In this document: piece after piece, positions 13,681-62,521 of the stretch
Layout: each line of letters opens with the position of its first letter
Position numbering within the stretch: position 1 is the stretch's first letter
Virus record (IMG/VR): IMGVR_UViG_3300016480_000208
Reading direction: 5' to 3' (one strand)
DNA length: 64,000 nucleotides
From: a virus
Lineage: Duplodnaviria > Heunggongvirae > Uroviricota > Caudoviricetes > Demerecviridae
Position numbers and translations under genes: made by a program
The notes under the pieces: model-generated
Database searches by the model: none
Told to the model about the DNA's origin: nothing
The model's input: only the letters and a program-made list of their open reading frames with translations

Positions 13681-13962
13681 TTAGCCACCTTTATCTTGCA
13701 ATAAGCAACCACTCAGGGCTGCTTCCAATTGGTCAATATAAGCTTTCTACTTTAGTCTATCGACTAGCAAACCTCTGGCTCTCTCTACCCTAGAATCTGG
13801 TACTTTGTCTAAGATAAACACGGGTTTTTCTGGCATTTTGCTGGCGCAAGGGACAAAAACCTCTTTGTTTACGTAGATTATCTCAGTTTTAACTATGGGT
13901 TTTTGCTAACAGCCTGTTAGCATCAATCCAAGGAGTCCAGCAAACCAAATACTTGCTCGCAT
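13681..13962 (-). CDS. Outer-membrane lipoprotein spanin (Rz1-like). It starts inside the 3' end of the Rz-like gene in the +1 frame and contains in-frame TAG codons.
   Basis: Manual translation gives MRASIWFAGLLGLMLTGC(TAG)QKP... with a lipobox Cys. The ORF track shows nothing here because of the TAGs. Confidence 0.5.
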
Positions 13963-14309
13963 ACTGTGCCCTCCTGATTTTTGGCCATAAGGGCCTTAAT
14001 TTTTTCTTCATAGGTTTTAGCCTGTGCGTCTGCCTGAGCTTGCTAAAGCTTACCCTGCGCCTTCAGGCTTTCCTAAGCCTAGGCCGCAAGTTGTACACGC
14101 TGGTTATTGTCTTCGATGACCTGTTCTAGTGAGGTATTATTCTATTCTAAAGTAGACACTTGTAATTGGTATTCCTATACCAGCTTATTCAAGTTAGCTA
14201 CCTCTACCTCTAAGCCCCTATTTTCAAACTTAGTAGCAGCCAGGGCTAGCTATAACACCTATATAATAGCTATTCCTATTAGGTTGTCCTTCAAAAATTT
14301 TTCTATCAT
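13923..14309 (-). CDS. Inner-membrane spanin (Rz-like) with an N-terminal TM segment, a coiled coil and 5 or more in-frame TAG codons.
   Basis: Manual translation: MIEKFLKDNLIGIAII*VL*LALAATKF...QLAA*A*ESLKAQGKL*QAQADAQAKTYEEKIKALMAKNQEG... The TAGs sit in hydrophobic and coiled-coil positions. Confidence 0.55.
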
Positions 14310-14346
14310 CTTATACTCCAAAAGCGGGCACAAGGCCCGCTTAATG

Positions 14347-14907
14347 TTATTTAATGCTAATTGTTTCAGCCAGTCCGGTATCGAATGCTCGGTTGGTTTG
14401 AACATCGCTAATAACTTGGCACATCTTATTCAGGTCAATTTTCGGGTAACCCGCCAGATTCATCCAGAAACCAGACCAAACGTACTCAAGATTGCTTTTG
14501 TAAGTAGCACACGCTTCCAGTTTACGGTCTTGTGAGAGCTGGAACTCCTTACGACCACCTTGCATGGCGGCTTGGATATTCAGATAAACTTTCTGGTCAA
14601 CAACCTGACCCTTCTCCTGAATCCACTGCATCATAGCCTTGGAGCCACCCTCTCCATAACGAGAACTCATTTCAGCCTCCACATACTTAGTCAGGTCGTT
14701 GATAAGCATGTCTGGAATCTGGGCCATGTCCTTAACGGTCATGGTCAATGCGCTCAAGGTATTGCGTGAGTTTTCATTATACTTGTTAATTGTCTGTTCT
14801 TGTCGTACAGCTTCGTTTTTATATGTGATGTAAGTCGTGAAACCAACACCAGCAGAAACGAAAACCAGAGCAAGTACAATAGCCAGAGCAATAAGTGCTG
14901 CCTTCAT
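14347..14907 (-). CDS. LemA-family membrane protein.
   Basis: N-terminal TM (MKAALIALAIVLALVFV) followed by a LemA-like helical region. Its start overlaps the upstream stop (TAATG). Confidence 0.45.
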   Translation of the reverse strand: MKAALIALAIVLALVFVSAGVGFTTYITYKNEAVRQEQTINKYNENSRNTLSALTMTVKDMAQIPDMLINDLTKYVEAEMSSRYGEGGSKAMMQWIQEKGQVVDQKVYLNIQAAMQGGRKEFQLSQDRKLEACATYKSNLEYVWSGFWMNLAGYPKIDLNKMCQVISDVQTNRAFDTGLAETISIK

Positions 14908-17772: not shown

Positions 17773-17797
17773 GCGAAAAAAGCTGGCCGAAGCCAGC
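17773..17797 (-). terminator. Rho-independent terminator after the TAG-dense membrane gene.
   Basis: agctggc cgaa gccagct with a T-run on the minus strand. Confidence 0.7.
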
Positions 17798-18370
17798 TCA
17801 TAGATTACGGTTCCAGTTTAGAAAACCATAGGCACATATCGCAAGTATCGGTAGAAACTACCAACTATGCAACACCCCTATAATACACACCCCAAGCCAC
17901 TATACCCAGCTACTGCTTAACCCATTAGCCATAAGTACAGAAGCCACCGATATACCTCCCAAATATTGAAGCTCTACCGCGGTATAAGGTACGTCATGCT
18001 ATGACATGAACATACCTAAACTTAGGAGTCCAAGGGTTAGGTAGCAAATGTACCCTGCTAAGTAGATCCAGCCGTACCCTTGTAAGTTTCTAGGAACGTA
18101 ATCCCTGGTTGCCTATATCTAGCAGCAGGAACCAAATACTATGTTCTATATGGACTACGTAAGAGACGCGGAGTACTACTACTAAACCACACCCTAAACC
18201 TACCCAATGAAGAAACCCAGCTTATTAAGCCTCTAAATGAGAAACATTATAGCTGCGAAAGGTAGCAAGGTTATATACTGGTGGCCTTCCTATAGTACCT
18301 AGGTAGTGATAAGCTAAACTACTAAGAACTAAAGTTCTTTCATAGTTATTTGTTGCAGAAAGGCAGTCAT
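17797..18370 (-). CDS. TAG-dense multi-pass membrane protein (holin-like), ~191 codons with ~19 in-frame TAG.
   Basis: Manual translation from RBS gggagga + ATG (cat at 18368-70) to TGA at 17797-99 has no TAA or TGA. The TAGs fall inside hydrophobic helices. Confidence 0.5.
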
Positions 18371-18471
18371 ACGTCCTCCCTGATTAGCACGCTGATTTCT
18401 CAGCCAAATTTGTAAACCCCATGTTTACAGCACTATTATAGCTCTTATTACGGCATAAGTCAAGCTATTTT

Positions 18472-21438: not shown

Positions 21439-21466
21439 ATTAATATGTAGTTTTTTCATAGCTCGA

Positions 21467-21899
21467 AATTGCTAGGGTCTGCCTGACGTTTCTCCTGCGC
21501 CTCAGGGGTGTTTGACACCTACTCCTAAAGGTACGGAAATCCACTAGGTAAAATTTCAAGATTTATATCAGAAGAACCTGAGATAATTGGCATCAGATTT
21601 AACCCAACAAGTGGGCTAAAACCTTCAATGGTCATCTTGTCAACTAAACCCTTTGTGTTTTTGTGCTCCAGCAATAAATTCTATTGTCTAGCCTACTCAC
21701 AAATAAGGTCGGGGGATACGCAAATATTATCTTCCCGCTACCTCAAGTATGTGAAGTATGGGTTAAATACGGATTGAATAGTGAAGTTGGGAAGTTTAGA
21801 AAGCCCCTACAACCTAACTACTATAGTGGTATCAGTAGGTTTGGCGTATGTTCTCACTACTTCAATCTAGGCACGAAAAGCCTTGTAGTCACTAGACAT
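21467..21899 (-). CDS. Hypothetical protein with ~8 in-frame TAG codons (start uncertain).
   Basis: Manual minus-strand translation is free of TAA and TGA from the ATG (cat at 21897-99) to TGA at 21467-69. Confidence 0.35.
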
Positions 21900-22702
21900 G
21901 AACACAGCTTTTTTGTCTGGAAAAACTGGAGCCGCCAGACAGAGCTTGAAGTCTTTAATAACGTCCCAGCTGTATGGGTCATAACCAAGCTACGCCAATA
22001 GTAGCTAAGTTCTGCTATGAAACTATGGTGCCCCAAATACTTCACGTGTAACTTCGTACCTATCCACATTATCCCAGATAGGGCCGGAGAACAGAATCTA
22101 ACCAGAACCGTCATACTACTCAAAAGGATAGCCTAACTAGGATACCGCCTCTAGTTGCTAAAAGATGTTCCCTACTTGGGGGATTTCTGCCCCAAGTAGG
22201 GTATTACTTTTAAGTAGTGTGCTTAAAGAGACAAGCAACTACTCACTCATTAAACCTCCCGATTGGTCAGCACATCTGCTCTAAGGGCATTAAGGGCGCT
22301 ACTAAAGTCAGGGCCAGCACTGGTATGAATTGTTCCGTACAACTCTAGTACTACTGTGCTGGTGCCAATACAGTAGTATCCAACGTCCCCATCGCCTGCA
22401 TCTGGCAGAGGTACAACTGGGTATTGTGTGCTACCAATTTTGAAAAACTCTGGTGCATCAAGGCGCACACTGTAGTCACGATCACTCATTTGCAGGCTCC
22501 TCTGCTTGCTCTGGTTCATTGATGGTGATGGGCTGCAGGCTAGTCAGAGGCTGGACAATCTGTGTGATAATAGCCTGGGCTCCACGTAGAGAGATACCTT
22601 CAGCTTTCACTACAGCGTCCAGGTTGTCGATAATGTGGTTAATTTGAGTATTGGAAATGGCGAATACCTGGTCTTTTACTTGTTCTGTCATGTTTTGCTA
22701 CC

Positions 22703-25880: not shown

Positions 25881-26087
25881 TTATGCTTTCTTGATGAACT
25901 GAACAATCTCTGCTGGGGTACGTAAGACGGTGCCGTCTTCCCTGATAAGAGCAGGAGCACTGCGAATGCCGTACCGCCTAGCAACCTCAATATCAGTTTC
26001 AATATTGAAATCAATATTCTTGCTGACTAGCTCGTTATAAAGTGCTACGCAGGCTTTGCAATTTTCAGTCTTAAACAATGTGATCAT
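25881..26087 (-). CDS. Glutaredoxin / NrdH-like redoxin.
   Basis: 68 aa with a CKAC active-site motif. Confidence 0.55.
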   Translation of the reverse strand: MITLFKTENCKACVALYNELVSKNIDFNIETDIEVARRYGIRSAPALIREDGTVLRTPAEIVQFIKKA

Positions 26088-26089
26088 TT

Positions 26090-26738
26090 CTACCTCTCAA
26101 GTGACCTTCTGGACTACTAAATACGTGAATTAAAATGCTAAACTAACTCTGAACCTTTTAACTGCTGAGTTATTTTTGGGGCCTGTTGCCATAAAACAAG
26201 AATCACCCCAGAATAAACCCCACTTAGGTCATATAGTGGTGCCTAGTAAAAGTATGCCTAGCCAGCAGCTTCAAAGTACTGAGTAGGTACTGGTAGGGGC
26301 TGCTAACTTAGGTCATCAACTACTGAGAAGGCCCCCTATAGGGATTTATCCTGCAAGTGGTTTATATATGCTACAGAGCTTTTGTCGACACTGTAGTTGT
26401 TTAGTTGGTCTATTTTTACTGGCAACACCCCTTCTGAGGCTCTAATAGATATAAAGTTATTAAGGAATTGTGGCTCATATTCCCAAATTATAACCTGGTT
26501 CTAGTTTAGCTAGGTTAGCACACTAATGGCCTCCTAGCGCTACTAGGCAGGGAACTACTTCTCCCTTAGCTGCTCCTGCTTCTACATAACGGTTTCCGTA
26601 CTTAGATTTTTAAATCCTTCCAGAATCTCCGTCTGGTAGGCTACTACCCAGTAACTAAGTACACCAAGCAGAATAGTACCGGCACGAAGAGCTAGAGTTT
26701 TAGGGTCTTTTATATCCTGTAAAAGAAGCTCTATCATA
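26090..26738 (-). CDS. Hypothetical protein, ~216 codons with ~17 in-frame TAG codons. Its TGA stop overlaps the ATG of the downstream redoxin gene.
   Basis: Manual translation; no TAA or TGA in frame for ~650 nt. Confidence 0.45.
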
Positions 26739-27714: not shown

Positions 27715-28378
27715 AGGTTATTCTCCACGAAATTAATAATGTTCTCTTTACCAAGAGATTTATCATTTATAAAGGTAAGGTCAAAACTAACCCCGTTTAG
27801 GGAGTTTTCAGAGATATGACTGTCTTTTATGCTTTCTTCCGGGTTTATGATATTTAGCATAACAAAATCCATAGATTTTAGCAGCCTAAACTCGTCTGGG
27901 AACCTAGTGTCATCTACCACAATAGTACACCCCGCATTTTCTATAATAGACTATTGCATCAAATCTACCCAGAAGGTATCTCTGATTCTATGGCGGAAGA
28001 ACTCTGTGCCCACTTTTTGCAGTAGCTCCCTGCCACTTATCGAGTCTACTATAAGTCCTGATTCTTGAGCCCAGCATATAAACTTATTTGTAGTCTAATC
28101 GACTTTAAGAGCTCCAAGTAGTCCCATAAGGGCATACTCTACGCTTTGCCTAGAGATGCCTTTGGTCTTGACGTAGGTGTTATCCTTGTCCCCGTAAAGA
28201 GCTTTGTGCACTACTTCTGGTTCGTTTACCTGTGATAGAATCTCAGTCAGAAAGATTTTCAGAGGCTAAGCAAAGCTTAAAATAACGGGGTCAGTGTTGG
28301 GGTATTTATGCAGGAACTACTTTGCTACGGCACTTTTACCACAACCTTTACTACCAGATAGGCTAATCTTATTTGCCA
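27711..28378 (-). CDS. Deoxynucleoside monophosphate kinase (T4 gp1-like) with 5 in-frame TAG codons.
   Basis: Manual translation MANKISLSGSKGCGKSAVAK*FLHKY... The P-loop aligns to the T4 dNMP kinase N-terminus. The listed ORF 27711..27920 is only the C-terminal part. Confidence 0.55.
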
Positions 28379-28800
28379 TAATAATGGGCTCCAGTCCTTA
28401 AAGTTACTTGCTTCATGTACTTCATCCTATGTTTCCCAAAATAGACCTACCCGTTAGTGGGGTCGTCTACTTCGTCATTTAACACCAAAGAAGCTATACG
28501 CAGTGACTCTTGCCACGCTGCCTTATTCTTTGGTGTTAGATTACTGTAGGAATCTCTTGTCCATGTAAACTAATGTCTTTTATATACAACCTTGGTTAGG
28601 TTATTTGAGAAATCTGGATGGTCGACTCTATTTAATGCTACAAACGCAGTAGCAATCTTGTCTATTTTTGTTGCACCTCTTGCTTCGTAGTATACAACGC
28701 AAGATAGGGCTTTGAGTTCGGAACGTGCATACTTACACGACCCTGCCTAGTTACCTCCAAAGCTGAGCATAAGCCCAAGCACTAAGATTAAATGTTTCAT
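28367..28800 (-). CDS. Secreted cell-wall hydrolase (SleB / Hydrolase_2-like); candidate endolysin with 3 in-frame TAG codons.
   Basis: Manual translation MKHLILVLGLMLSFGGN*AGSC...VVYYEARGATKIDKIA...NRV... Its stop overlaps the dNMP kinase start. Confidence 0.45.
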
Positions 28801-34519: not shown

Positions 34520-35115
34520 TTAAGTATCCAACTGATTTGGGGTTGGTAAGGATATCCCACTTCCCAAACAAAAATAGCATAATTAACAGCCGAGGAAGCA
34601 CCGTCATCAATGTCGTCTTTAAGACACTTAATTCGATAGGAGAATATATCAACGTGCTTTAGCTGGCCTACAGTAGAGAAGAATTTGCCCCTGGCTTGGG
34701 AGGTTAAAAAGTCTAGGCGCAGTAGCATGATAACTTTTCCACCTTTGGTGTCCCTAAGCAAATGCAGTGCATGCTCTACGTATTTTTGTGCCTGCTTATA
34801 TGGAGGGTTTGTTATAATGGTTGTTACTGGCTCACCGTAGTACATAAAGGGTAGTTTTTCTGTATTAAAGAAGTCTACCACTTCTGTAGGGAAGCCTTTG
34901 CTGTTTATGTAGCCATAGTCGTAGATGTCCGAGGAGTAAACTGAGAAACCCTACTCTTCTAGTGGGATAGAAACTTTTCCTGTACCAACTGAAGGCTCCC
35001 AGAGTATCTCTCCAAGGTTTAGGTACTTTAAAGCATGTTGTACGAAATCTGGTGGAGAAGTGTAGAAGTCTAGTGCCTACACATCACTTCTACGGATAGT
35101 ATTAGCACTGGCCAT
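34516..35115 (-). CDS. N6-adenine DNA methyltransferase (Dam-like) with 2 in-frame TAG codons.
   Basis: Motif I EPSVGTGK and motif IV NPPY. Confidence 0.55.
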
Positions 35116-35302
35116 GGGTGCCTGCCTTGCGAATTTCAAATCCGTGTTTTACTAGCTCACTAGTGACTGCTTCTAGGGGTAGATGATACGCCACTGGGCC
35201 TATGTACTCTTCTGCTATTTCTCGGATTTCCTTAGCAGACACAAATTCTCCGTTTAGTGTATAATGAATCATGACTCTGGATCCTCTCAAATTTTAAGTA
35301 AA

Positions 35303-35335
35303 TAAAATCCCCCAACTGACGCTGGGGGATTTTTG
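35303..35335. terminator. Bidirectional-looking terminator hairpin (aaaatccccca...tgggggatttt).
   Basis: Perfect 11-bp inverted repeat flanked by A/T runs on both sides. Confidence 0.6.
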
Positions 35336-36135: not shown

Positions 36136-36229
36136 ACGATGTATCTCCGAGGCAAAGGTGGATTAGAAGTTAGTTTTCTCTCTCACCTATATAGTATAGC
36201 AAAAATGAAGGTATGCTGCAACTATTATT

Positions 36230-37400
36230 TTAAATCCGGTAGGGCATCTACTAGTTGCTCTATGGAATCAAAATACTTCATAGGGAATCTCTTATCCCTA
36301 TACACTTTAGCTCTAGTTTCCTAGTGCCGGTATCCAGTTCCACCAGATAAAGCTAGGTCTATAGCAATAGGTGTGCGCTTACCGCTCATAAGTCTTTGTA
36401 TGCGTCCAATTAGCTGGGCTATTAATGACTAGTTATCACTACTAGAAGTGAGTATTAGACAAGACAGTATACTTAGTGATAGACCTTCCGAGAATATAGA
36501 AGTAGTGGATACTACGCCCTAGTACTTACCTTCTTGTACTTGTTCCAATATGGTAGCCCTGTTTTTCTCCTCGGATATAATCAATGCCCACTTCTTTCCA
36601 GTTACCTCTTCTAGCACACTGGCAAGTGTTCTGGAGAAATCCACACGGTCTGAGGTGATAAGTGGTATGTGGCCACTAAAATGGGCCTAAGCCTACAGGC
36701 AAACTATCTCCTTTAGATAAACATCCTGGCTATATAGGTCTGTAACCTAGTTGGCCCAACCACCCGGCTGTGCTGTTAGGTTAAACTTCTACTTGGAGTA
36801 GGTTCTGAGAACTATAGGAATCATCACGTTCTCTTCCTTCGGAATTACAACGTTCTTGCTGAACCACCCGGGGAATAAAACGTGCTTACCGTCTTTACGG
36901 ATTAAGGTACCACTAAGGCCTAACTTAATACCGGCAAAACTATGCACTAGTACTTTTTCAAAGGTAGATGCTGGGCAATGGTGCACTTCATCCATAATTA
37001 GTAACCCAAATTCCCTACATAAGGATTGGGCATGCTTTTGTACGGTTTGTATGTTACCAATTACTATAGGAGTGGAGATATCTACCTGGCCACCGCCGAT
37101 TATAGCTGGTGTAAAGCCAAAATGTTTTCTAACCTCTTGCACCCACATGTCTCGAATATCAGTAGTCGTGGTGACTACCAGCGTCTTTAATTGCAATTTG
37201 TGGGCTATAGCTAGCTAAGTAATAGTTTTACCAAACCCAGGTATTGCGTTAATAATCCCGTTTAGCTAAAATCCACCTATCTTAGGGTAACTAAGGAACT
37301 ACCCCATAGCCATACTCTGAGACTCCCTCAATACAAATAGGGGGTCTGGGATTTTCTACGAAACCTTAGAAGTTCTATCTACAAACTCAAACTGACAACC
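36230..37400 (-). CDS. SF2 helicase (DExH) with in-frame TAG codons; boundaries approximate and it may extend toward 37915.
   Basis: Walker A IPGFGKT just upstream of fragment 36789..37196, which carries DEVHH and SGT motifs. Several TAG-only interruptions. Confidence 0.4.
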
Positions 37401-38146
37401 CTAACCTGTTACTCGTTTGCACATGCCAATTATGGTATCTATGTGCCCAGAAGGGAAGGAGTATGCCTGTTTTGAGGTAGAGATAGTCTTAATCTGTAGC
37501 TAGATTGGCTGAAACTTCTGATTAGGGCTCTGCTTGGGCAGTATAAACGTAAGAAGCTCTACCTACTGCTGATGCTCTTCAGGCGTAAGCCGCATATATA
37601 CTTGGTCTGATATAACCACCTTTCGTGGCTAACTTAAAGCTTCTTTCTACGTGAACAATTCTACGTGTCTCCAAAATCTAAAGGCATATAACACATTGCC
37701 CCTAGCTTAACTAGGTAAACATATAAGTAGCCCCTAGAAGCAACTACACGCTCCAGGCCTCCTTCTGGGAGTTTGTACCACATTTCTACCTTACTATCCT
37801 CTAGCTGGTTTGCCTTTATAATTTTAGCCGGCACTACGTCATAGTAGGTACTTTTTACCCACTTAAATACTCTGCCTTGGTTATTTATAAAGTTTAGTGT
37901 TCCACTATTCGCCAACTCCTACAAAGTATTGCATATCTTGTGCAATGGGTACAGCCTATATGATGTCTTGTTGTTTACCTACAACCAGAGACGCCTTTCG
38001 GTATAGGTCTAACCGGGGGCGTTCTAGTCGTCTAGTAAGTATTTCTCCATAGCTGAGGTTATGTACGTTTTTGGCCCATCCTTTTCTATGCTTACATACT
38101 ACCTTAAAGGAAATAGGGGCAAATTTGCCCCTATAAAGTTCTTCAA

Positions 38147-40587
38147 GCTCATAGTGCAGCTACGGTTGGGTACTGTTTCTGCAACTTACCACAAGAGTAG
38201 TCGAAGGAACCACCGTCCTCGGAGTCAGAATCAACGCCCATAGGCGCCCCTGGGATCATTAGTCCACGGTCTTTCTGTATATTACGTACAACAAGCTCCA
38301 AGTATTCTTCTACGCAGGACTCATGAACTTCTGCTACTACTGAGTCATGTACCATACAAAGGATTTGAGCATCCAGCTTACGGGCAGTAATCTCTGCTTC
38401 TGCGTCAATAGCCCCCAGCAGCAGGATATCAGAAGATGCCCCTTGGATGATAGCGTTAAACCCAGAACGCAGCTCTTCGCCGATAACACCACGGTCACTA
38501 GAGGTGATGTTACGCAGACGGCGCTTACGACCAAAGTGGCTATAAATGAAGCCGTGGTTCAGAATCTGGTTGTGGCATTCGGTGATCCACTGCTTCAAAC
38601 GAGGGAATCGCTTGAAGTACACAGCGATGTATTCTTCTGCCTTTTCCTTGGTGCAAGGAACGTATGGCTCACCTGTTTTTAGGCTCTGCTCAAGTAGCGC
38701 TTCGTTAACCGCTTGAGCTACTTTTGCTGGGCCAGAACCATACAAGATACCAAAGGTAATCGCTTTAGCTGCTTGACGCAAGGCTGGGAATAGCTTTTTA
38801 ACCTCTTGAGGCTCGCAAGACAGCCCGAATACCATGTGTGCAATGTTACTGTGGAAGTCAGGATACTTAGCAGGGTCTCTAGTCATATTGATAAAGACTT
38901 GTTGCAGGCCTTTATCACCAGACAGGGCTGCTGCTACCCAAACTTCCGCAGTGGTCATATCCACCGCCACAATCCTGTAACCCTTTCTGGCTTTGATACA
39001 CCCTTTTACTAGTGCATCATCACGAGGAAGCTGTTGCAGGTTTAGGGTACCACTGGAGGACAGACGACCAGAGGTTGTGGTGTGCAAGTGGAAGCCAGTA
39101 CGTAGACGACCATCGAGGTCTACGTGATCCAGTGCTTTCTCGATGTAGGTGTTTAGCAGCTTAGAGAACTTACGGTACTCTAGGATTGCTTTAGCAATAC
39201 TGGAATCTTGGTCTGATGCCAGTTTTTCTAGAGCTTCCGCGTTGGTAGAATCCTGCTTGGTATCAGTCATGATACCTGTAGGTGTCAACCCTTCGTAATC
39301 AAACAGCAGTGTGCGCAGTTGAACAGGAGAGGCTGGGTTAAACGCGGAACCTTTATCAAGTTCGTACCTGTTTACGCTGTCGAACTGGTAGATTCGTTCT
39401 TGTGCTTCACGAATTTTTTCTGATACTACGGCACTTGCTTCTTTAAGCCGAGAAACGCTGAAAGGTACACCACGAGACTCGATACGCTGCAAGAAGCGGT
39501 TGCCCGGAATCAAGATGTTGGTGTAAAGAGAGTTCAGTTGTGGATTTTTACGAATAAGCGGCAAAAACTTATTGTGCAGACGCAGGGTAGCGTCAGGGTC
39601 TTTTGCTGCGTATACCTTAAGGATGTCCCAAGGGATAAGGTCGTAAGTGAAATCCTCTTTCTTGACATTATGCAGGGTGCAGTATGACTTCTTAAATTCT
39701 TCCAGCTCTAAGTCGTAGTCACCCAAGTCAGTGTAGTCGATGGCCAAAGACTTCAAACCATGCGTACCTGTACGTTCATCAAGTGTATAATGCTGTAACA
39801 TGGTATCGTGCATACGGTTTTCATCATATGCCTTGTTAAAGTCGATACCAAAATGGTACTCAAACCAATGTTGGTCAAACTTCAAGTTATGGAATACAAT
39901 GTCCGCCGGAGAATCAAAGATTTGTTGCACCATACCAATCAGTTTAGTATCAAACAAATCAGCGTGGATATACCTCCCATAACCAGGGGTGTCACAGAAG
40001 CACAAACCTAGTGGGTAGCCTTTACGGGCGTACAAAGCTGTGGTTTCCGAGTCCATACCAACCGCAGAACTTTTACCAGATAGGACGTTTTGCACAACTT
40101 GACTAAGGTAGCTTTCCGCTTCTTTGTAGTCCGTGATACCTTCCCAGCTGCCTTCTGCTTTTGCTTGCCCAGAAACCAACAACTGACGAATCTTGGAAAT
40201 TGTTTTTTCCATTACCGGCTTGTTCTCTGGCCGGAAAGAGAGCACAGCCGGAGAAATAGACGCAATAAACCTTGCATTAGCCCAGGCATCTTTGGGAGGG
40301 GCCATAAGCCCAGTGTAATCTGTTACTGAGGTAACTCTACTATACTCTTTCAAAGCCTCAGAACCTACTAGAATAGTGAAATCGTACTCCATAGGGTTAA
40401 ACTGAATGTCGATGTTCTTCTTGGTCGGCTTCTTGATAGAAGGGTCAGAACATAGATGGTAAACATCTACTGGGATAGTCCCATTGAAGTAAATGTTAGA
40501 ATAGTTCTGTCGGTTAGGGCTTTTATCTACTACGGCAATTTTAGGTACTTTGGTCATATACTCAGGTCTCCTTAAACCTCTGTCCAA
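38147..40587 (-). CDS. pol: Family A DNA polymerase with 3'-5' exonuclease domain (T5-type).
   Basis: 812-aa ORF with a PolA palm (RRxxKxxNFGxxYG-like RQAAKAITFGILYG) and an N-terminal exonuclease. No in-frame TAG; ends TGA. Confidence 0.85.
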
Positions 40588-41507: not shown

Positions 41508-42867
41508 TTTACTCATCTCCTTGTTCTTCTTGTGGCACTTTGACTATGCTTTGTGGGATAATTTTCATGTAGTCCCACGACATATGGGTCACGAAGTTGA
41601 TACCTGCTGGGAGGTTACGCAACTTAGCTACTGTAAGTGTCAGAACTGAGCCAGATTTATTAATGGTGAACTACATATCCACCTAATCTAACAAACCTTT
41701 CTACATACGAGTGGCCCCGTTTTCATCTACTTGATACGGTGAAATAACTAGAACTTTTTGCTTCCTGGCTATTGTGTTCTTAAGCATAGTTGCTAACTGT
41801 GTTTGAACCTTCCAATCCAGCCTATCAAGAGTTTTTACGCCCTCAAGTATAAGCTGGTTTACATAGTCAACAATTACCGTGGTTACTAGCCCCGGGTATT
41901 TTGCCTTTAATGTCGTTAGTACTAGATCAATGGTGGAGATTTTTAGATTCCTATCATCAATTACTACTATCGGTAAAATCTGTTTTAGGTGTTGCTTGAA
42001 ATACGTTTCGTGGCTTTGGAATAGGTCCCTCGTAGGAGGCTCTTCTAGTGCTTTTAGTTGATCCATTAAGTAATCAAAACCACCTTCGTACTGTGCGGCT
42101 TGAGAAAGCTACAACTGTACTTGTTCAAAGTGATTCATAGTACCATTACGTAACGCGGAGAATCTAACACCACTAGCTGTCTACCAAAATCTCTGGTATG
42201 TTTCCTCGGCGGTCATTTCGATAGTGCAGTACGGGGCTATTTTACCAACCATCCAGTGGTGGGCACAGATGTTAATACAAAGTGCTGATTTACCAACTCC
42301 TCGGTATCCACCTAGAAGAATAAGCTCTTCTTCTTTTCCTCCCAGAAACTCCATATCCCAGCGCTCGGATAACCCAAGGGTTGAGAACTAGGTTTGGGTT
42401 TCTTCCTCCGCACGAAACATTGAAATTTCGTTACCGTAGAATACTTTGTCAGAACTGTCTATCTCCTCTTCCACTAGCATCTAGATGGCCTAGAGTTCCT
42501 CTACTATCTCCTGTGGCCCTAACAAGGGTAAGTTGTCTGCAAACTTGTCTAACTTCTCGATAGCGATATGCTGGATGTGCTCGGCTTCTAGTTGCTCCAA
42601 CTATAGGGAGATTGGTACGTCCGGTAGCTCCACCTTTTCAAGTGCTAGTACCTAATGTAGGACGGAAGAGTTTCTGGAATTAAACAACTTTAACTCTTCA
42701 AAAGAGGGGACTCTGGCATGTGCTTCGTAGAAGTTATTTACTGATCGATATACGCTGGAGAATAGGCCCGAGAAGTACTACGATTTCAGCTTTTCCATCT
42801 AAGCTAGCTTTTGCTCCTGACTATCAGACTATAGCAAAAGCCCTAGAGTTGTGCTTTGTAGTGACAT
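41508..42867 (-). CDS. DnaB-family replicative helicase with ~11 in-frame TAG codons.
   Basis: Walker A GGYRGVGKSAL. The listed 41701..42066 fragment ends on TAG, and reading through reaches TAA at 41508. Confidence 0.5.
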
Positions 42868-48229: not shown

Positions 48230-51157
48230 TTATAACTCGAGCATTTCCGAGTAATCTACAGGAGATTCTTCCTTAAGTGCAGAAGGAAGCGGTAGACTAT
48301 TAAATGAGCAGTACTTCTCTACGTTAAGTAGGGCGTTTGCAGGTTCCCATACCCAATGTTTAGCATCCAAAGGAATACCTAACATGCTGAACAGTAGGGT
48401 AGGAATTTTGTTGTTATAGTGTACACCAGCCCTAAACAGCTTTGGCAGGTTTACAAGACACAAGTCAATAAACTTGGCCTTCTTCCAGCCAGCCTCTAAT
48501 TGGGCATCCATGATTTGACATAATTCGTCCCATAGCCCTGGAATCATCATGAATCGGTATGCCTTTTCAGCCTTCTTCAAGGTGTTATCCTCTAGGAAGT
48601 CAATAATCATATCTACAGTGATGTCTTCCACCCCTGAGAAGTGTTGGACAGCTTTGTAGATCATTTGAGCGTTATTAATCCTTCGTGTATTTGGGATATT
48701 TTTACTCATATAGATTTTGGTGGCGTATAAATTCAAGTGCTCTTCTGAGTACATTGCCAATGCTTTGTACTCCAGCAAGTTCTCCTCACACGGAGGGAGA
48801 ATAGTAACCTTGCTAGTTTTCTTGAGCATGTTGTAGCGGACGTAGAACTGGTACTTATTATGCTCACGCATCTTCCTTAAAAAGAAGATGGTTTGCAAAT
48901 CACCAACCATACCCTTATCAAAAGACGACAAGCACTTAGCGGGAGTAGACACGCCACCGTTGGCATCACCAGAAGTCCAGTAATGGACGTAAATCGGGTG
49001 ACGCTCTCTGCAGATAGCCTGAATACGAATTGCTGGACTGTTTAAGCCAGATGATGTAATACAGTACACATGGGTAAAGTACTTCTGGAAGTCAACACCA
49101 GAGGTCATACTTGGGCTTGTAATACAGATATCCACACATAGCTCTTTTAGGGCTTTGGTGGGTACAGCAGCATCCATGATCATCCGCACGTCTTCATCAT
49201 CCCTACTCTCAGCATGAATCTCCACAATAGTTGGGACCCTAACACCATTAGCAATACAGTGTTGCTGGATACCGTAAGAAAGTTCGTCAATCTGTTTAGG
49301 GCCGTAGTCCGTTACTACTAAGATACGCATTGGTAGACCCGAGCTAGCGTTTGTTAACATATGGCCAACAATATCAGGCTCAGTCTTGTGCTCATACACT
49401 TTAGCGTCTAGGTGAGTAGGAACCTCCGACTGGTAGGTTATAGTGGGTTTTGTATGCCCCACCAAGGCTGAGTAGGCTTCCACAGTCTCGCTAGAGGTGT
49501 CCCCGTCTGCCAAGATCACGTAATCACACTGAATCATCAACAGATACAGCGCGTTAAGGATACGGTCTCGGCGCTCAGTGTCAATGATAGCACTGTCAAG
49601 TAGTTCTTGGATGGTACTGTCGGACTCGTCAATAAACAAGGTTTTGGTGCCAGGAATACCAGTAAATCTCTCCGCAACTTTATGCAAGCTGTGGATAGTG
49701 GTAGCGATACCATTCTTGTTTATTTCAAAGCCTAGCTTGGTGTATACATCCAAATCCATTGCAGAAGCGATTGATTCTACCAGAGTAACACGGTTGGTGA
49801 CAGCTAGAATAGAGCCCAGCTTGCCACGCTTCTGTAGTTCGCGAACAGAGTAGGTTTTGCCCATGCCCAGCGATGCTTTCAGAAAACTGAGCTTACCACG
49901 TTCAGGGAACGTGTCAGGTAGCACAAGCTTGCCCATAGGAGAAGGCTCACAATCGTGAATTTGGTGCTTCCACTTATTCTCCTTAGGAAAGGAGACACTA
50001 CGAGCAACGTCGGCAATAGACCTAGCCATAGCAAAGCGGAAACCGTTATGTAGGTAATCTTTGACCTTTTTCGTACTGCCATGACGCTTAGAATAGCTCC
50101 GTAGAATTGGTGTAAGAATATTTCGCTCAAAGTCTTTGATATCCAGACCTTCTTGCAATGCGTCAAAATAAAGGGTGTGTACAATTTTGATGTACATGTT
50201 GTCACTTACTTTACCTGTCATGATATCATTACACTTTCTCTGCAAGTTTGCAGGCAGCTGCGCTACAGCTTTATCAACCTCTGGATTAGCCAAAACAGGA
50301 ATACCGTCTAGTTTAGCCATGATTTCCAGGTGGTGCTTATTCAGCTCCTCGTACTCCGTTGCCTCAATAGCCGATTCCAGAGCTTTTGGGATAGTAGCAC
50401 TACAGCCAAAAGTATAGTACAGTCTATCTGTACTATGGAAGGGGTCAGCTAGCCCCTCAAGGGTTGGTGGGGCCGTAATCAGAATACGCGCTGGAGAGTA
50501 GGTAGTATTGTCGAGGAATCCTTGCAGTTTTTGGTTAATTTGGTCGATCAAAAAACGAATCTGACCACCAGTAAGTTCATGCTCATTCACAAAGTAGAAG
50601 TGCGCACGAATACCGGAACTGATACCTGCCGAAGAGGATGCCAGAACAATGTGACCCATAGTCTCAGGGAAAAATTCTGGGAACTCTTGATGCAGTAGAC
50701 CTACGATGTATTTGCCAACCTCTGGCAAATCAATTGGGTTGGGCGCAGACATATCAACCCAAGAGTCAATGTCAAATGCTATTAGTTTAAAGGGGGCATT
50801 GTGACTATCGAATGCTACCTTAGTACGTGGAACAAGTGTATCTTGCCCCACCTTCTTTTTACCCACCACCATTAACAGGTTTGGGTTATTTTGAGATTTG
50901 CGTAGAAATTTTACAGCACTCTTGATACTGTCAGGATTTGCTTCCTGTACTACCTCGTAGTAGAATTTCTTCCTTAGATCGCCTGATTCTGCTTTTAGCA
51001 GAAACGGCACAGGCATACTATCTTCCAGCTTGAAGGTAGACGTTATGCTTTTTGTAAAGCTAGGGGTGTGAGTCAAAGGTACATACTCTTCCCTCATGCT
51101 ATTATCTGAGGTTCGGATGTACCTACGCACCAATCTTGGAGCTAGGATAGAGAACAT
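48230..51157 (-). CDS. Large P-loop NTPase (Walker A LGMGKTY, Walker B FIDESD); putative replication helicase or primase-helicase.
   Basis: 975-aa ORF with no in-frame TAG. Confidence 0.55.
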   Translation of the reverse strand: MFSILAPRLVRRYIRTSDNSMREEYVPLTHTPSFTKSITSTFKLEDSMPVPFLLKAESGDLRKKFYYEVVQEANPDSIKSAVKFLRKSQNNPNLLMVVGKKKVGQDTLVPRTKVAFDSHNAPFKLIAFDIDSWVDMSAPNPIDLPEVGKYIVGLLHQEFPEFFPETMGHIVLASSSAGISSGIRAHFYFVNEHELTGGQIRFLIDQINQKLQGFLDNTTYSPARILITAPPTLEGLADPFHSTDRLYYTFGCSATIPKALESAIEATEYEELNKHHLEIMAKLDGIPVLANPEVDKAVAQLPANLQRKCNDIMTGKVSDNMYIKIVHTLYFDALQEGLDIKDFERNILTPILRSYSKRHGSTKKVKDYLHNGFRFAMARSIADVARSVSFPKENKWKHQIHDCEPSPMGKLVLPDTFPERGKLSFLKASLGMGKTYSVRELQKRGKLGSILAVTNRVTLVESIASAMDLDVYTKLGFEINKNGIATTIHSLHKVAERFTGIPGTKTLFIDESDSTIQELLDSAIIDTERRDRILNALYLLMIQCDYVILADGDTSSETVEAYSALVGHTKPTITYQSEVPTHLDAKVYEHKTEPDIVGHMLTNASSGLPMRILVVTDYGPKQIDELSYGIQQHCIANGVRVPTIVEIHAESRDDEDVRMIMDAAVPTKALKELCVDICITSPSMTSGVDFQKYFTHVYCITSSGLNSPAIRIQAICRERHPIYVHYWTSGDANGGVSTPAKCLSSFDKGMVGDLQTIFFLRKMREHNKYQFYVRYNMLKKTSKVTILPPCEENLLEYKALAMYSEEHLNLYATKIYMSKNIPNTRRINNAQMIYKAVQHFSGVEDITVDMIIDFLEDNTLKKAEKAYRFMMIPGLWDELCQIMDAQLEAGWKKAKFIDLCLVNLPKLFRAGVHYNNKIPTLLFSMLGIPLDAKHWVWEPANALLNVEKYCSFNSLPLPSALKEESPVDYSEMLEL

Positions 51158-56358: not shown

Positions 56359-58527
56359 ATGCCTATTTATGTTGGCAACACTGGGGCCTAGAAAATATTA
56401 GGTCTAACAAAAACCTCCCAGGATTAGTGGAACGTAAAGCCAGATACTATATTCCACTCCTCCCTGCCGTATGTAGAAGTAATCGAGCATTATATGCCTG
56501 TTGCGTATAAACACTAGGCTGCACCTTACGACTATCTAGTAAAAGATTATAACCCAGACTACTGGGGGACAGTAACAGTCTACGACTGGTTTAATTACTA
56601 CAACTACGCACCAATAAATGGTAATAAGTATCACAACATTCACTACTATGAGTAGGTATTAACTGATTAGGTGAAATCCTTCTTAAGATACACCAACAAT
56701 TAGTACATACTAATATACCACTTGAGCAATGGCGCCCAAGTAATGATGCCTTAGCATAATTCAGACATAAAGACCACGCACAAAGGGGATTTGCAACATC
56801 TGGACTAGACCGAAGGCAACATATAGACACCAAACTAGGGTTATAGAGCTAGAATGGATCAACTCAAGGCTATTGATAGCCCTTGGGACTTAACGGGGTA
56901 TCAGGACGTATACTGGTTCCAGTACGCTTTTGTGCAGCCTTCCGCAAATGGTGTAGTAACAACACCTAATGGAATAGTGAGTACCCTTGATATTACTGTT
57001 ACTGGTATTACTATTCTTCAGTTAGTGGGGTTAAACCTTGTATAGGCAACCCCAGGAGCAAACCCGCTATCTACCTAGCCCTTGAACCCTTAGCAGCAAG
57101 GGGCTGTTCTTATTTCTAGGGATTCCTTGAATATATAGGGAGTAGAATATAAAAACAAAAAATTCCTACAGGTGCTAACTAACCCGATTACCACAACAGG
57201 CAGTTAGGCGGTAAACGTATCTACTTAGAACTTATAGGTTACAAATCTGTACGCCTCTTCTCCCAGCTTCCAATGGGGGACTAGACTAGACTATCTAGCG
57301 AAATATCGTGACGGGGGCTTCATGAACGTAGGTATAACCTAGGGTTCTTCACAGTACACCTTAATAAATTATCCTCTGGGGCAGGAGTGGTACTCTAATG
57401 TCCCTGCTGTAGGTGCTTGGGGCGTCCTGCCAGGCAATAACATGACAACATATAGTGGGGCTGTACCAGGGTACTGGCCTTATAGTTTTTATGGTGGTGC
57501 GTCAGTTGGGGTTAATTCTTGGAAAGGTAGTATTAGGAAACCCAAAGAGCTTATTTAGCAGTCTTGGTAGCACACCTTTACTAGACTTAGCTAGACCGAT
57601 ACCTGGACTCTAGGTCAGTACTTTAACCAAGGGCTAGCAAATCGCCTTGGTTCTGAGGTTCAATACTTCTAGGGCGTGTAGATTACCTCTCTAAGTAAGT
57701 AGTAGGGTATTGCGTTCGATAGTTCACACCCTAGCATCAATTAGGGTGCCCAATATAAGATGTTCTCGCCAGATTCGCAAATGGTTGCAAGAATTGGTAA
57801 AACATACGCAGCAGCTATCCCACAAGATACCTTTAGCGGGTCACCCTACTATTCTGGGACACGGAATTTCCCATAGTACGAAGATGATATTCTTGTATCA
57901 ATAATTGATTTGGGATAGGAAGAGCAGTAGACCAACAACTTCTTCCTAACATCCTACATTCAAGACCAGGATTTAATTAACCTGTCCTATGCTAATACCT
58001 TGAGGTTTATTGTATCTGGGGGCGTTATCTCATACCAAGAGAATAACTTTAACCCAAGCTACAACATACCTAAGTAGTGCTTATTCTATAGATAGCCGTA
58101 TGATGGGGTTGGTGGGCAATGGTACAAGTCTGTGCAAGCCAATAATGGTTCCCCTGTATGGTTTGGTTATCCAGATTGGTACTACAGCAACTACGACTTA
58201 CCTACAGATATGATAGGATTCCCTTTCCAATCAAACCATATACGTAATAGGTAGGTTTCTGTGGTAAGCTTGCCAGTAGGTGCACAATATATCTTGAAAG
58301 AAGAGCTAAACCCACAGTCAAGCTACGCGTGGAACGGGCCAGACCAAGTTAGGGGGGTACGAAGCTCCATCTAGTATCTTCGTAGAATCTCTTAGTCCAG
58401 AATTGAGGTGCGCCTCAACGTACATAAGACACAGTAGCACAGTGTTTTCTCTAATGGTGGGTATCTTGGTTTCGGTACTTTTGGGTCTAGCGTAGTTCAA
58501 AACTTCTAGATATGCCCTATACTGTAA
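56359..58527 (+). CDS. Long TAG-rich gene: 723 codons with 36 in-frame TAG and no TAA or TGA until the terminal TAA. The Y/N/G/W/T-rich protein may be structural or receptor-binding.
   Basis: Codon-by-codon check against coordinates. The listed ORF 56854..57045 is an in-frame fragment. ATG at 56359. Confidence 0.6.
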
Positions 58528-60276: not shown

Positions 60277-60363
60277 GGTGAATATGAGCAATGTGGTTAG
60301 CTTCAGCGGTCTGTAAAACCGTGCTCTCTGGGCCTGTTGGTTCGATTCCAACATTCACCACCA
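60277..60363 (+). tRNA. tRNA-Tyr (GUA), type II long variable arm.
   Basis: Acceptor ggtgaat/attcacc+a+cca, T-arm gttgg-ttcgatt-ccaac, anticodon loop ctGTAaa. Confidence 0.6.
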
Positions 60364-60369
60364 ATTTCT

Positions 60370-60455
60370 GGAGGTTTTGAGCAGTATGGCGAGCTCAGGT
60401 GGCTGTAACCCACTAACTTCTATGTTTATAGGTTCGAATCCTATAACCTCCACCA
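60370..60455 (+). tRNA. tRNA-Tyr (GUA) second copy, type II.
   Basis: Acceptor ggaggtt/aacctcc, D-stem gagc/gctc, anticodon loop ctGTAac, T-arm atagg-ttcgaat-cctat. Confidence 0.6.
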
Positions 60456-60461
60456 ATTTCT

Positions 60462-60577
60462 GGACTTGTAGCGACAACGGTTCGATAGGTGTACCCTGTG
60501 TGCGGAGTAATCTGTAATCACTATCAGGTAAAATCCCTATGGAGCGGTGACTGGTTGGAATCCAGTAAAGTCCACCA
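60462..60577 (+). ncRNA. Oversized tRNA-like element (116 nt) with a canonical acceptor and T-arm but an unresolved core.
   Basis: 5' ggacttg pairs with 3' aaagtcc+a+cca; T-arm actgg-ttggaat-ccagt; no standard D or anticodon arms could be placed. Confidence 0.3.
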
Positions 60578-60584
60578 ATTTAAT

Positions 60585-60659
60585 ATTGGCGTGTTCTAAC
60601 GGTAAGATGCAGGTCTCCAAAACCTTGCGATGAGGGTTCGAATCCTTCCGCCTTTGCCA
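60585..60659 (+). tRNA. tRNA-Trp (CCA)-like with A1-U72, G73 and two U:U acceptor mismatches (possibly degenerate).
   Basis: Anticodon stem-loop caggt-ctCCAaa-acctt, T-arm gaggg-ttcgaat-ccttc, 3' cgcctttgcca. Confidence 0.4.
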
Positions 60660-60665
60660 GTTAAT

Positions 60666-60741
60666 AGACCACTAACTTAATGGTTAGAGTATCCGCCTCT
60701 TAAGCGGAAGGTTCTGAGTTCGAGTCTCAGGTGGTCTACCA
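60666..60741 (+). tRNA. tRNA-Lys (CUU).
   Basis: Acceptor agaccac/gtggtct, D actt/gagt, anticodon tccgc-ctCTTaa-gcgga, T-loop ttcgagt. Confidence 0.8.
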
Positions 60742-60923
60742 GTTTTGCAAGTATAATGTATGAGAAGAATGAGGTAAGCGTGGGGTAACGTTCTCAAGGG
60801 TACACGGTTAGAAAGACACTCGTAATATTAGTCGTCCAGCCCTTATGCCGTGTGAAGTCTAGCCTTTAGGGCAGACCAGATTCCTGATAAAGCCTACAGA
60901 TTATACTTGCAAATTTATTTAAT

Positions 60924-60997
60924 GCTCGGTTATTTTAACGGGAGAATACTTCCCTTACAAGGAAGAGGAGTTGGTTCGATTCCAACACTGAGTACCA
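60924..60997 (+). tRNA. tRNA-Val (UAC).
   Basis: Acceptor gctcggt/actgagt, anticodon cttcc-ctTACaa-ggaag, T-arm gttgg-ttcgatt-ccaac. Confidence 0.7.
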
Positions 60998-61003
60998 AAC
61001 AGT

Positions 61004-61079
61004 TGAGACGTTGTGTAATTGGTTAGCACATGTGACTTTGACTCACATAGTTAGGGTTCGAGCCCCTACGTCTCTGCCA
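61004..61079 (+). tRNA. tRNA-Gln (UUG).
   Basis: Anticodon tgtga-ctTTGac-tcaca, T-arm taggg-ttcgagc-cccta, 3' ...cgtctctgcca. Confidence 0.65.
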
Positions 61080-61173
61080 AACACTCTAAACCTGAATTAA
61101 CAGGGGAAGGGGGCCGTGAGTGTACTATGTAATCCTCCAGGTTATAGAGTAAATATACGGCTCTGCCAATTTT

Positions 61174-61250
61174 GGGTTAGAAGCACATAAGGTATGTGCG
61201 GTCGCCTGTTAAGCGAATGGTAGAAGGTTCGAATCCTTCCTGGCCCGCCA
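61174..61250 (+). tRNA. tRNA-Asn (GUU).
   Basis: Acceptor gggttag/ctggccc, anticodon gtcgc-ctGTTaa-gcgaa, T-arm gaagg-ttcgaat-ccttc. Confidence 0.7.
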
Positions 61251-61264
61251 AATTAAAACAAAGA

Positions 61265-61293
61265 TTGCTATCAAGCTGACAACTTGATATAAT
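61265..61293 (+). promoter_or_regulatory. Promoter of the same family (TTGCTA-17-tgaTATAAT) inside the tRNA island.
   Basis: Near-identical to the 62389 module. Confidence 0.65.
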
Positions 61294-61315
61294 ATCTTCA
61301 GAAATTAAGAATAAT

Positions 61316-61393
61316 GCGTCACTAATTCAATTGGTTTAGAATATCCGGCTTTTAACCGGAAGGTTGTAGGTTCGAGTCCTACGTGGCGTACCA
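61316..61393 (+). tRNA. tRNA-Lys (UUU).
   Basis: Acceptor gcgtcac/gtggcgt, D attc/gaat, anticodon tccgg-ctTTTaa-ccgga, T-arm gtagg-ttcgagt-cctac. Confidence 0.8.
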
Positions 61394-61400
61394 TTTTAAT

Positions 61401-61475
61401 GCTCCTATCGACTAGCGGTTAGGTCACTACCCTTTCAAGGTAGTAACATGGGTTCGAATCCCATTAGGAGTACCA
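61401..61475 (+). tRNA. tRNA-Glu (UUC).
   Basis: Acceptor gctccta/taggagt, anticodon ctacc-ctTTCaa-ggtag, T-arm atggg-ttcgaat-cccat. Confidence 0.8.
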
Positions 61476-61490
61476 TTTAAGAGAGTTAAA

Positions 61491-61814
61491 ATGTATAATA
61501 ACGGAAAAGTAGCAGAAATAACTGCAATGCTGCACTATGCAGAAGCGGGTTATGAGATATTTCTCCCACAAGGTTCATAGTCCTGTGACTTTATTGCTCT
61601 TTCCTCAGAAAGACTTATAAGGGTAGAGGTTAAGTCCACGGGTTAGGTTAACGGGGAAATAGACCTAAGAAAAAGAACCCATACTACTACCACAAAAACT
61701 CAGCATTTTAACTCTAATAAGAGTGATGAAACTTTCTTGTATAATCTACTTACAAAGTAGTTTAAGATAGTGTAGTCAAACACTTTAGAAGGTAGACGTT
61801 CTATACGCGTCTAA
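61491..61814 (+). CDS. Small PD-(D/E)XK nuclease (Hjc-like resolvase / homing-endonuclease-like) inside the tRNA island, 4 in-frame TAG codons; its 3' extent is uncertain.
   Basis: GKVAEITAMLHYAEAGYEIFLPQGS*SCDFIALSSERLIRVEVKSTG matches the Hjc-type E...D...EVK motif. RBS gagag. Confidence 0.4.
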
Positions 61815-61906
61815 TACCAGAACTTCCTTTGCTGTCCACGGACGCTATGGGTTGCTGGAGCAAGCAAGGCTCTGCCCAGCGTGAAGTCGCCTTGCAACAT
61901 TTTAAT

Positions 61907-61981
61907 GCTCTGTTAGTTTAATGGAGAGAACACTTCGCTACGGACGAAGAGGTCTGGGTTCGACTCCTAGACGGAGTACCA
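61907..61981 (+). tRNA. tRNA-Arg (ACG).
   Basis: Acceptor gctctgt/acggagt, anticodon cttcg-ctACGga-cgaag, T-arm ctggg-ttcgact-cctag. Confidence 0.8.
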
Positions 61982-62290
61982 CTTTTGCCTTGGCCGGCAA
62001 GAAGTCTAGCTAGTAGACTATAACAGCAAGCACGGTTATGGGCCGGATAGCTCATACGTCCAGCCACCCGACGTAAAATAGGGGTTCGTTATGGCAGCTT
62101 ATCGAAGTAAAGCTGGTCGGATATAGCCTAACCGTGAGAAAGGCTGGCCTGTTCCCTCTAACAAAGTCAGGTGGAAGTATCTCTTAGATGTCCAGAGCGG
62201 ATCCCGTTGGGTTGATGCGTGTGTCGGTCTAATTCATACAAGCCATCAGGATTAGCCATCCATAGAGGGGTTTTTAAAGCGTTTTCTGGC

Positions 62291-62367
62291 GTGGGCATAG
62301 GTTATGTCTGGTTAAACTCCACGTTGTGACCGTGGGAAAATGGGTTCAAATCCCATTGCTCACCCCA
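62291..62367 (+). tRNA. tRNA-His (GUG).
   Basis: Acceptor gtgggca/tgctcac + C73, anticodon ccacg-ttGTGac-cgtgg, T-arm atggg-ttcaaat-cccat. Confidence 0.7.
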
Positions 62368-62388
62368 GAGAACGTTTTAAAATAATAA

Positions 62389-62417: not shown

Positions 62418-62446
62418 AATCATATGAAATCGAGAGTGGTTTTGAT

Positions 62447-62521
62447 GGGGCATTAGCTCAATGGGAGAGCGGCGGACTCTAAATTCGCTGGTTAACGGTT
62501 CGAGTCCGTTATGCTCCACCA
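62447..62521 (+). tRNA. Amber-suppressor tRNA, anticodon CUA, on a tRNA-Ala-like body (G3:U70, A73). Predicted to decode TAG as alanine.
   Basis: Full cloverleaf: acceptor ggggcat/atgctcc+A+cca with the G3:U70 wobble; D-arm tagctcaatgggagagc (E. coli tRNA-Ala-like); anticodon arm gcgga-ctCTAaa-ttcgc; variable tggtt; T-arm aacgg-ttcgagt-ccgtt. A promoter lies 30 nt upstream. Confidence 0.85.

Follow-up and report, generated by a model that had tools for sequence, protein, structure and literature searches.

Can a stretch of phage DNA that carries 17 in-frame amber (TAG) codons encode a protein, and if so, how are these codons read and what does the product do? This question is raised by a minus-strand locus at positions 17798..18370 of a 64,000-nt sequence of a Demerecviridae virus, IMG/VR record IMGVR_UViG_3300016480_000208 (hereafter the window), which an initial annotation had singled out as a hidden gene for a TAG-dense, holin-like membrane protein. 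The locus is almost certainly a real, translated gene, as judged by comparison with its relatives. Our best overall reading, which we favor with somewhat better than even confidence and which is drawn from sequence comparison, is that it encodes a divergent PnuC-like membrane protein made via a phage suppressor tRNA.

The amber-dense frame and its conservation

The coding sequence (CDS) runs from an ATG at 18370-18368 to a terminal TGA at 17800-17798 and comprises 190 codons plus the stop. TAG accounts for 17 of the 190 sense codons (8.9%), and neither TAA nor TGA occurs ahead of the terminal TGA; over this stretch, the two alternative minus-strand frames hold 9 and 5 TAA/TGA codons. Based on the window-wide frequency of TAA and TGA combined (∼0.036 per codon), the chance of a 190-codon run free of both is ∼1e-3. 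The initial annotation had described a minus-strand open reading frame (ORF) leading from a gggagga ribosome-binding site and an ATG to a TGA, with TAG as its sole internal stop, and all of these elements could be located in the sequence; its left edge (17797) was one base off, and its count of about 19 TAGs was slightly high. It had also remarked that the ORF track is empty here, which is accurate and is explained by the absence of any minus-strand ORF of at least 30 amino acids across the region under the standard code.

The frame is accompanied by a full set of expression signals on the minus strand. The Shine-Dalgarno sequence GGGAGGA (18374..18380) was read in the sequence 3 nt 5′ of the ATG, and a sigma-70-type promoter, TTGACT-17 nt-TATAAT (18435..18463), which agrees with the consensus at 11 of 12 positions, lies ∼93 nt 5′ of the ATG. 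The terminator that had been placed next to the gene was borne out as an intrinsic terminator at 17776..17799, with an 8-bp GC-rich stem, a UUCG loop and a U-run, a fold energy of −14.5 kcal/mol and an overlap with the stop codon, a hairpin that a simple terminator pattern scan did not flag. The locus is a monocistronic, self-contained transcription unit, with an exonuclease-like gene on one side and a Ser/Thr phosphatase gene on the other.

The window represents a T5-like Aeromonas phage of the genus Shenzhenvirus (Demerecviridae) and is 88–95% identical to the phages AhSzw-1, AhSzq-1, and AhP_Mru1 of that genus. A tblastn search located the same frame in five phages from GenBank, among them Akh-2 and TS3 (∼45% identity), and a protein search returned 14 database clusters of this family, for six of which DNA was obtained. 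The resulting DNA set comprises 12 loci, with five GenBank phages and six metagenome contigs as sources. All 12 copies keep a frame of 189–190 codons, down to 45% identity, in which TAG is the sole interruption (14–20 per copy) and TAA or TGA never occurs. Compared with close relatives, the gene shows 18–22 synonymous and 8–10 non-synonymous differences, for a ratio of non-synonymous to synonymous rates (dN/dS) of ∼0.11; compared with more distant relatives, synonymous sites are saturated and the non-synonymous proportion (pN) is 0.08–0.34. In every one of the 12 related loci, the promoter, as TTGACT-N17/18-TATAAT (or TATACT), is found at the corresponding place, together with a GGAGG-type Shine-Dalgarno sequence and the terminator, the stem of which shows compensatory changes. 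Members of the family are confined to this phage clade, and no gene for a polytopic protein of 190 amino acids was seen at the equivalent position in the T5-like, Vibrio, and Pantoea Demerecviridae examined.

In GenBank, the locus is unannotated in AhSzw-1, AhSzq-1, and TS3 and called as short fragments in AhP_Mru1 and Akh-2, and this, together with the lack of a standard-code ORF, would fit a region that is non-coding or a pseudogene that has decayed and is riddled with stops. Such a region would not be expected to show a dN/dS of ∼0.11, a frame and length kept at 45% identity, TAG as the only stop in frame, and conserved expression signals, and an Rfam scan of the region returned no family match. 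We consider decay or a non-coding role hardly credible, and the conservation pattern effectively refutes it.

Reading of the amber codons

The window contains a tRNA array at 60277-63101 that includes a tRNA with the anticodon CUA (62447..62521, plus strand), 12 nt upstream of a tRNA-Ala(UGC). ARAGORN labels this tRNA(CUA) as "Pyl", a label taken from the anticodon alone. Its acceptor stem (G1-C72, G2-C71, G3·U70, and G4-C69, with A73) resembles that of the adjoining tRNA-Ala(UGC), and G3:U70 and A73 are identity elements of alanine tRNAs. A copy of tRNA(CUA) is present in all seven relative records (five phages), where GenBank gives it the label tRNA-TERM, tRNA-Pyl, or tRNA-OTHER, or no annotation at all, and the window tRNA is only 85% identical to it. 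The copies of AhSzw-1 and Akh-2, for which the full sequence was read, do not differ from each other; they depart from the window tRNA by compensatory changes in acceptor pairs 5–7 and in the T stem but keep G3:U70 and A73.

Frames delimited by TAA and TGA were aligned to the 50-kb replication regions of T5 and of Vibrio phages PG07 and phi3, all three of which follow the standard code. Twelve conserved genes (helicases, primase, ribonucleotide reductase subunits, and others) provided 54 TAG sites, at which alanine was the commonest aligned residue (36 of 137), and conditional probabilities derived from BLOSUM62 placed it ahead of serine by 20.9 nats and of glutamine by 41.6 nats. Where the outgroups agreed within a TAG column, seven columns held alanine and one each held serine, glycine, histidine, and glutamate, with none holding glutamine. 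As a reservation, the three outgroups are not independent of one another, though the ranking of alanine is robust. Within the family of the 190-codon gene itself, TAG exchanges most with the alanine codons GCN (11 columns), followed by serine codons (9 columns); two mutations or more separate GCN from TAG, yet it is the most frequent exchange partner. GCN is also depleted in the TAG-bearing genes of the window ORF set (5.8%, against 7.3% in TAG-free genes), with TAG and GCN together amounting to 8.3%. Taken together, the tRNA identity elements, the 54-site alignment, the exchange with GCN within the family, and the depletion of GCN support the assignment of TAG to alanine, which we regard as very probable.

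Two other approaches did not contribute to this assignment. A scan of all 20 amino acids at the TAG sites against Pfam was non-discriminating and was not used, and no bias was seen in the nucleotide 3′ of TAG. The hydropathy argument of the initial annotation, that alanine suits the helices and glutamine does not, stands insofar as a small or apolar residue is favored over glutamine; it is not specific to alanine, as the tRNA and the alignments are.

The alternative that TAG encodes glutamine, the assumption made by public gene callers (genetic code 15), would give helices lined with glutamine. Glutaminyl-tRNA synthetase mischarges some amber suppressors, a point in its favor, and the database entries P0001–P0009 show glutamine at the TAG sites, although these glutamines are TAG codons as rendered by a code-15 gene caller. 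TAG-to-Gln is, moreover, a recoding that has been reported in phages (bioRxiv 10.1101/2021.08.26.457843). Glutamine nevertheless ranks 41.6 nats below alanine in the alignments and has no outgroup-conserved column, the G1:C72, G3:U70, and A73 of tRNA(CUA) form the identity set of alanine and not of glutamine, and the N-terminal hydrophobic segments of the protein disappear when glutamine is inserted. We therefore judge this alternative to be highly improbable.

A tRNA of this kind has a laboratory counterpart in tRNA-Ala(CUA) amber suppressors, which carry the same G3:U70-based elements. Hou and Schimmel, as well as McClain and Foss, are said to have established in 1988 that a CUA anticodon leaves recognition by alanyl-tRNA synthetase (AlaRS) intact, with identity residing in G3:U70 and not in the anticodon. 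In contrast to the laboratory suppressors, the phage tRNA occurs in nature, is encoded by the phage itself, and serves hundreds of codons, with 228 in-frame TAGs across the window ORF set. Among natural systems, the closest likeness is to the recoded genes of crAss-like, Lak, and other gut phages (code 15, TAG-to-Gln; code 4, TGA-to-Trp), with which the locus shares in-frame stops conserved under purifying selection and a phage suppressor tRNA. It differs from them in that the amino acid would be alanine, via a G3:U70 tRNA, and in that the phages are cultured, T5-like Aeromonas phages. A survey of recoded phages describes only TAG-to-Gln and TGA-to-Trp where the phage code differs from that of the host, and codons distributed unevenly among genes with enrichment in lysis and membrane genes, as here (bioRxiv 10.1101/2021.08.26.457843). 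No account of natural TAG-to-Ala recoding in phages, or of any recoding in Shenzhenvirus, emerged from a literature search of incomplete coverage, and the description of Akh-2 discusses its tRNAs solely with regard to codon bias (PMC7157608).

Membrane topology and resemblance to Pnu transporters

With TAG read as alanine, hydropathy gives about seven hydrophobic segments in the product, and with glutamine the N-terminal ones are gone, so that the proposal of a hidden membrane-protein gene, for which this comparison had been suggested as a check, held up. Both AlphaFold2 (AF2) models have 7–8 helices, and AF2/DSSP places 16 of the 17 TAGs in helices, in agreement with the earlier remark that the TAGs sit inside helices. 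The product is rich in alanine, with 28 alanines when TAG is counted (14.7% of residues) and 61% of the alanine positions encoded by TAG. We conclude with high confidence that it would be a membrane protein. The AF2 models themselves are poor, as they were built on a shallow alignment and on database sequences with glutamine at the TAG sites, and fold searches were uninformative; the structure predictions were degraded because the database sequences are probably mistranslated at TAG.

The only match among 24,736 Pfam families was PF04973 (NMN_transporter, the PnuC family). This profile matched 7 of 10 full-length members of the family (best E 1.5e-4) and all 10 C-terminal halves translated with alanine (E 5e-5 to 0.05), collinear with positions 80–175 of the 175-position model and ending at both C-termini. 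Across the 20 TAG substitutions, the PF04973 match was seen with 10 (Cys and nine polar or small residues) and was lost with apolar and hydroxyl residues (A, F, I, L, M, V, W, Y, S, and T), the score following overall composition. For profile comparison, we used ten diverse PnuCs, namely that of E. coli and nine from phages, one of them the canonical PnuC of AhSzq-1. Aligned to these with hhalign, the 12-member family gave P 1.7e-4 at full length, against P 0.05 in a reversed-sequence control, and its C-terminal half aligned with the PnuC C-terminal half at P 1.8e-5 and a probability of 78%. In these alignments, VASVLMANGLSSSWVAWL falls on the PnuC pattern A..LM..(R/K)Y.E.W..W..N and AYGFLNWNRN on the terminal YG.Y.W motif of PnuC, and the protein has the motifs of the second Pnu repeat (A..LM...W..W and terminal YG..W). 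In PHROGs, the PnuC-like phrog_1880 was the only match at E <1 among four other family members, and it was marginal.

These results suggest that the C-terminal three helices are most likely distantly homologous to the second repeat of Pnu facilitators (PnuC, PnuT), with VLM...W..W and YG..NW among the shared motifs, and we lean modestly toward regarding the whole protein as a putative Pnu-family relative. It resembles the Pnu family (PF04973; 4QTN, PnuC of Neisseria mucosa) in size, in its all-helical polytopic build, and in its C-terminal motifs. It departs from that family in its sub-threshold scores, its unrecognizable N-terminal half, the absence of an adjoining kinase or adenylyltransferase gene, and the 9% of its codons that are TAG. 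Two residues conserved in the ten aligned PnuCs, a Glu that precedes the first Trp and an Asn that follows the second, are replaced here, and for this reason the substrate may not be nicotinamide riboside.

Several observations weigh against a Pnu assignment. All PF04973 scores (14–24 bits) fall under the gathering threshold of 27.3. The N-terminal half, which holds 14 of the 17 TAGs, showed no similarity to PnuC or to the C-terminal half of the same protein in hhalign. Full-length Pnu proteins have a SWEET-like fold of 3+1+3 helices with an internal repeat; here, 7–8 helices are predicted in models too poor for fold comparison, and no internal repeat was detected (P 0.16), compared with P 4.5e-8 in true PnuCs. 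A profile search of Protein Data Bank (PDB) sequences did not recover the PnuC structure 4QTN; its top match, a claudin-like TARP, was insignificant (E 0.04) and was set aside. Nothing beyond this family was returned by an exhaustive HMMER search (1.8 billion representatives) or by a profile search against 5.8 billion proteins. Finally, no gene for a trapping enzyme (NadR, ribosylnicotinamide kinase, or thiamine kinase) adjoins the locus.

The same observations leave room for a membrane protein with another function, for instance in host takeover, the exclusion of superinfection, or the timing of lysis, in which the likeness to PnuC would have arisen by convergence of transmembrane helices containing Trp and Gly. 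Matches that are all sub-threshold, an unmatched N-terminal half, and models too poor to give structural confirmation would fit this, as would the restriction of the family to one phage clade with no syntenic equivalent in T5-like, Vibrio, or Pantoea Demerecviridae, and a PADLOC scan without matches (an NCBIfam scan of the protein was likewise empty). Convergence would account less readily for a sole match among all Pfam families that recurs in 10 of 10 diverged members and runs collinearly to both C-termini, for the failure of the reversed-sequence control, and for shared LM..W..W and YG..W residues that fall on positions conserved across the ten PnuCs. We consider this explanation rather unlikely and prefer the divergent PnuC-like protein.

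PnuC genes are common in Demerecviridae and in other phages. Outside the window, AhSzq-1 encodes at 65894-67626 a canonical NadR-like adenylyltransferase and a 238-amino-acid PnuC without TAG. As the lineage thus has a canonical NadR-PnuC pair, the amber-dense gene would be a second, divergent Pnu-type gene.

Lysis genes, amber load, and a possible translational gate

The initial annotation had proposed a holin-like candidate, and a related possibility is that the product is a holin, pinholin, or antiholin whose synthesis is delayed by the TAG load until late infection, when it would help trigger lysis. The product is a probable membrane protein, and its TAG density is similar to that of the phage's holin (15 of 217 codons) and i-spanin (7 of 160 codons). 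Known holin classes have 1–3 transmembrane domains, rarely 4, for which ∼7 helices in 190 amino acids would be atypical. Recoding has also been linked to lysis genes (bioRxiv 10.1101/2021.08.26.457843). However, no holin family was matched in Pfam (E up to 10) or PHROGs (E ≤1) under any of the 20 TAG translations; the only sequence similarity found was to Pnu proteins, and elsewhere the window already encodes a T-type holin, a pair of spanins, and an endolysin-like protein. The locus is separated from the holin by 8 kb and from the spanins by 3.4 kb, with a promoter and a terminator to itself. As to the proposed check on synteny with lysis genes, the locus is outside the lysis genes of this phage; T5-like phages place holin and endolysin ∼2 kb from the phosphatase gene, which is circumstantial support. 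Overall, a holin-type role appears quite unlikely, and a PnuC-like protein remains the preferred reading.

The lysis genes are all on the minus strand. The T-type holin (26084-26737) is a 217-amino-acid protein with 15 TAGs that matches PF11031 (Phage_holin_T; E 1e-22, above threshold) and phrog_860 (E 1.6e-32), and it is likewise hidden by in-frame TAGs. Although both are TAG-rich membrane proteins of ∼200 amino acids in the same phage, T4/T5-type holin T combines one N-terminal transmembrane domain with a large domain in the periplasm, in contrast to the ∼7 helices of the PnuC-like protein, which has no similarity to it. The i-spanin (13923-14405; 7 TAGs) has an N-terminal transmembrane segment and a coiled coil, and the o-spanin (13681-13962; 2 TAGs), which overlaps it, has the lipobox LTGC; Rz-like matches of the pair in PHROGs are weak. 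The endolysin-like candidate (28369-28800; 3 TAGs) is a SleB-type cell-wall hydrolase with a signal peptide that matches phrog_938 (E 1.5e-13).

With 8.9% of its codons, the PnuC-like gene is the most TAG-dense in the window, followed by the holin (6.9%), a short, 63-codon ORF at 35114-35305 whose status is doubtful (6.3%), a 264-codon ORF (5.7%), a 722-codon ORF (5.0%), and the i-spanin (4.4%). The 264-codon ORF (21456-22250, minus strand) holds 15 TAGs and had no Pfam or PHROG match, and the 722-codon ORF (56359-58527, plus strand) holds 36 in-frame TAGs (5%) that are spread evenly. Other TAG-rich genes to which the initial annotation had pointed do exist, with limits and counts that differ from those it gave (26084-26737, 15 TAGs; 21456-22250, 15 TAGs; 862-2013, 8 TAGs). 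In the PnuC-like gene, 14 of the 17 TAGs fall within the first 86 codons, a 5′ bias present in all 12 relatives and not in the other TAG-rich genes. When delimited by TAA and TGA, 74 ORFs of the window end in TAA and 23 in TGA. TAG use is strongly gene-specific even inside the replication module. In that module, the DNA polymerase (38149-40557, 802 amino acids) and the origin-binding protein (48230-51157, 975 amino acids) have no TAG, and the D10-type and DnaB-type helicases (36225-37595 and 41509-42867) have 14 and 13, respectively, all four genes being on the minus strand.

A mechanism in keeping with these features can be outlined. Host RNA polymerase would transcribe the gene from its strong, early-type sigma-70 promoter, and the phage tRNA(CUA), charged with alanine by the host AlaRS, would read the 17 UAGs as alanine. 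A full-length product would require tRNA-Ala(CUA) to outcompete release factor 1 (RF1) at every UAG, so that its yield would scale roughly as the per-codon suppression efficiency raised to the 17th power, and the protein would accumulate only with the suppressor abundant relative to RF1. The TAG load would in this way act as a steep translational gate, a role for the TAG density that we hold tentatively, at slightly less than even confidence. Once made, the protein would insert in the inner membrane and, by the homology of its C-terminal bundle, would most likely act as a Pnu-type uptake facilitator of a small metabolite. More broadly, Shenzhenvirus may have a natural amber-to-alanine code that operates via a tRNA-Ala-like suppressor and an anticodon-blind AlaRS, in which TAG density gates membrane-active and lysis proteins ultrasensitively despite strong early promoters; we regard this combination as possible, if a little short of an even chance.

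If this model is correct, phage recoding would extend beyond TAG-to-Gln and TGA-to-Trp to alanine, and no phage synthetase would be needed because a G3:U70 tRNA with a CUA anticodon would be charged by any bacterial AlaRS. The 17 ambers behind a near-consensus promoter would then represent a natural, steep, tRNA-dependent gating of a membrane protein, and given that it would occur in cultured phage-host pairs (Aeromonas hydrophila), the model would be directly testable. Of greater interest than the gene itself is the wider phenomenon, in which cultured phages would use a natural TAG-to-Ala code and load their genes with ambers to differing degrees.

If TAG is indeed read as alanine, the public annotation of these phages contains two kinds of error: GenBank entries omit or fragment the PnuC-like gene or split other genes at TAG, and metagenome gene callers render TAG as glutamine. 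Public entries of the PnuC-like family are probably mistranslated at 14–20 positions each by a code-15 caller. Splitting is also seen in AhSzw-1 (MG676225), where the replicative helicase at 39079-40383 is annotated as two CDSs divided at a TAG.

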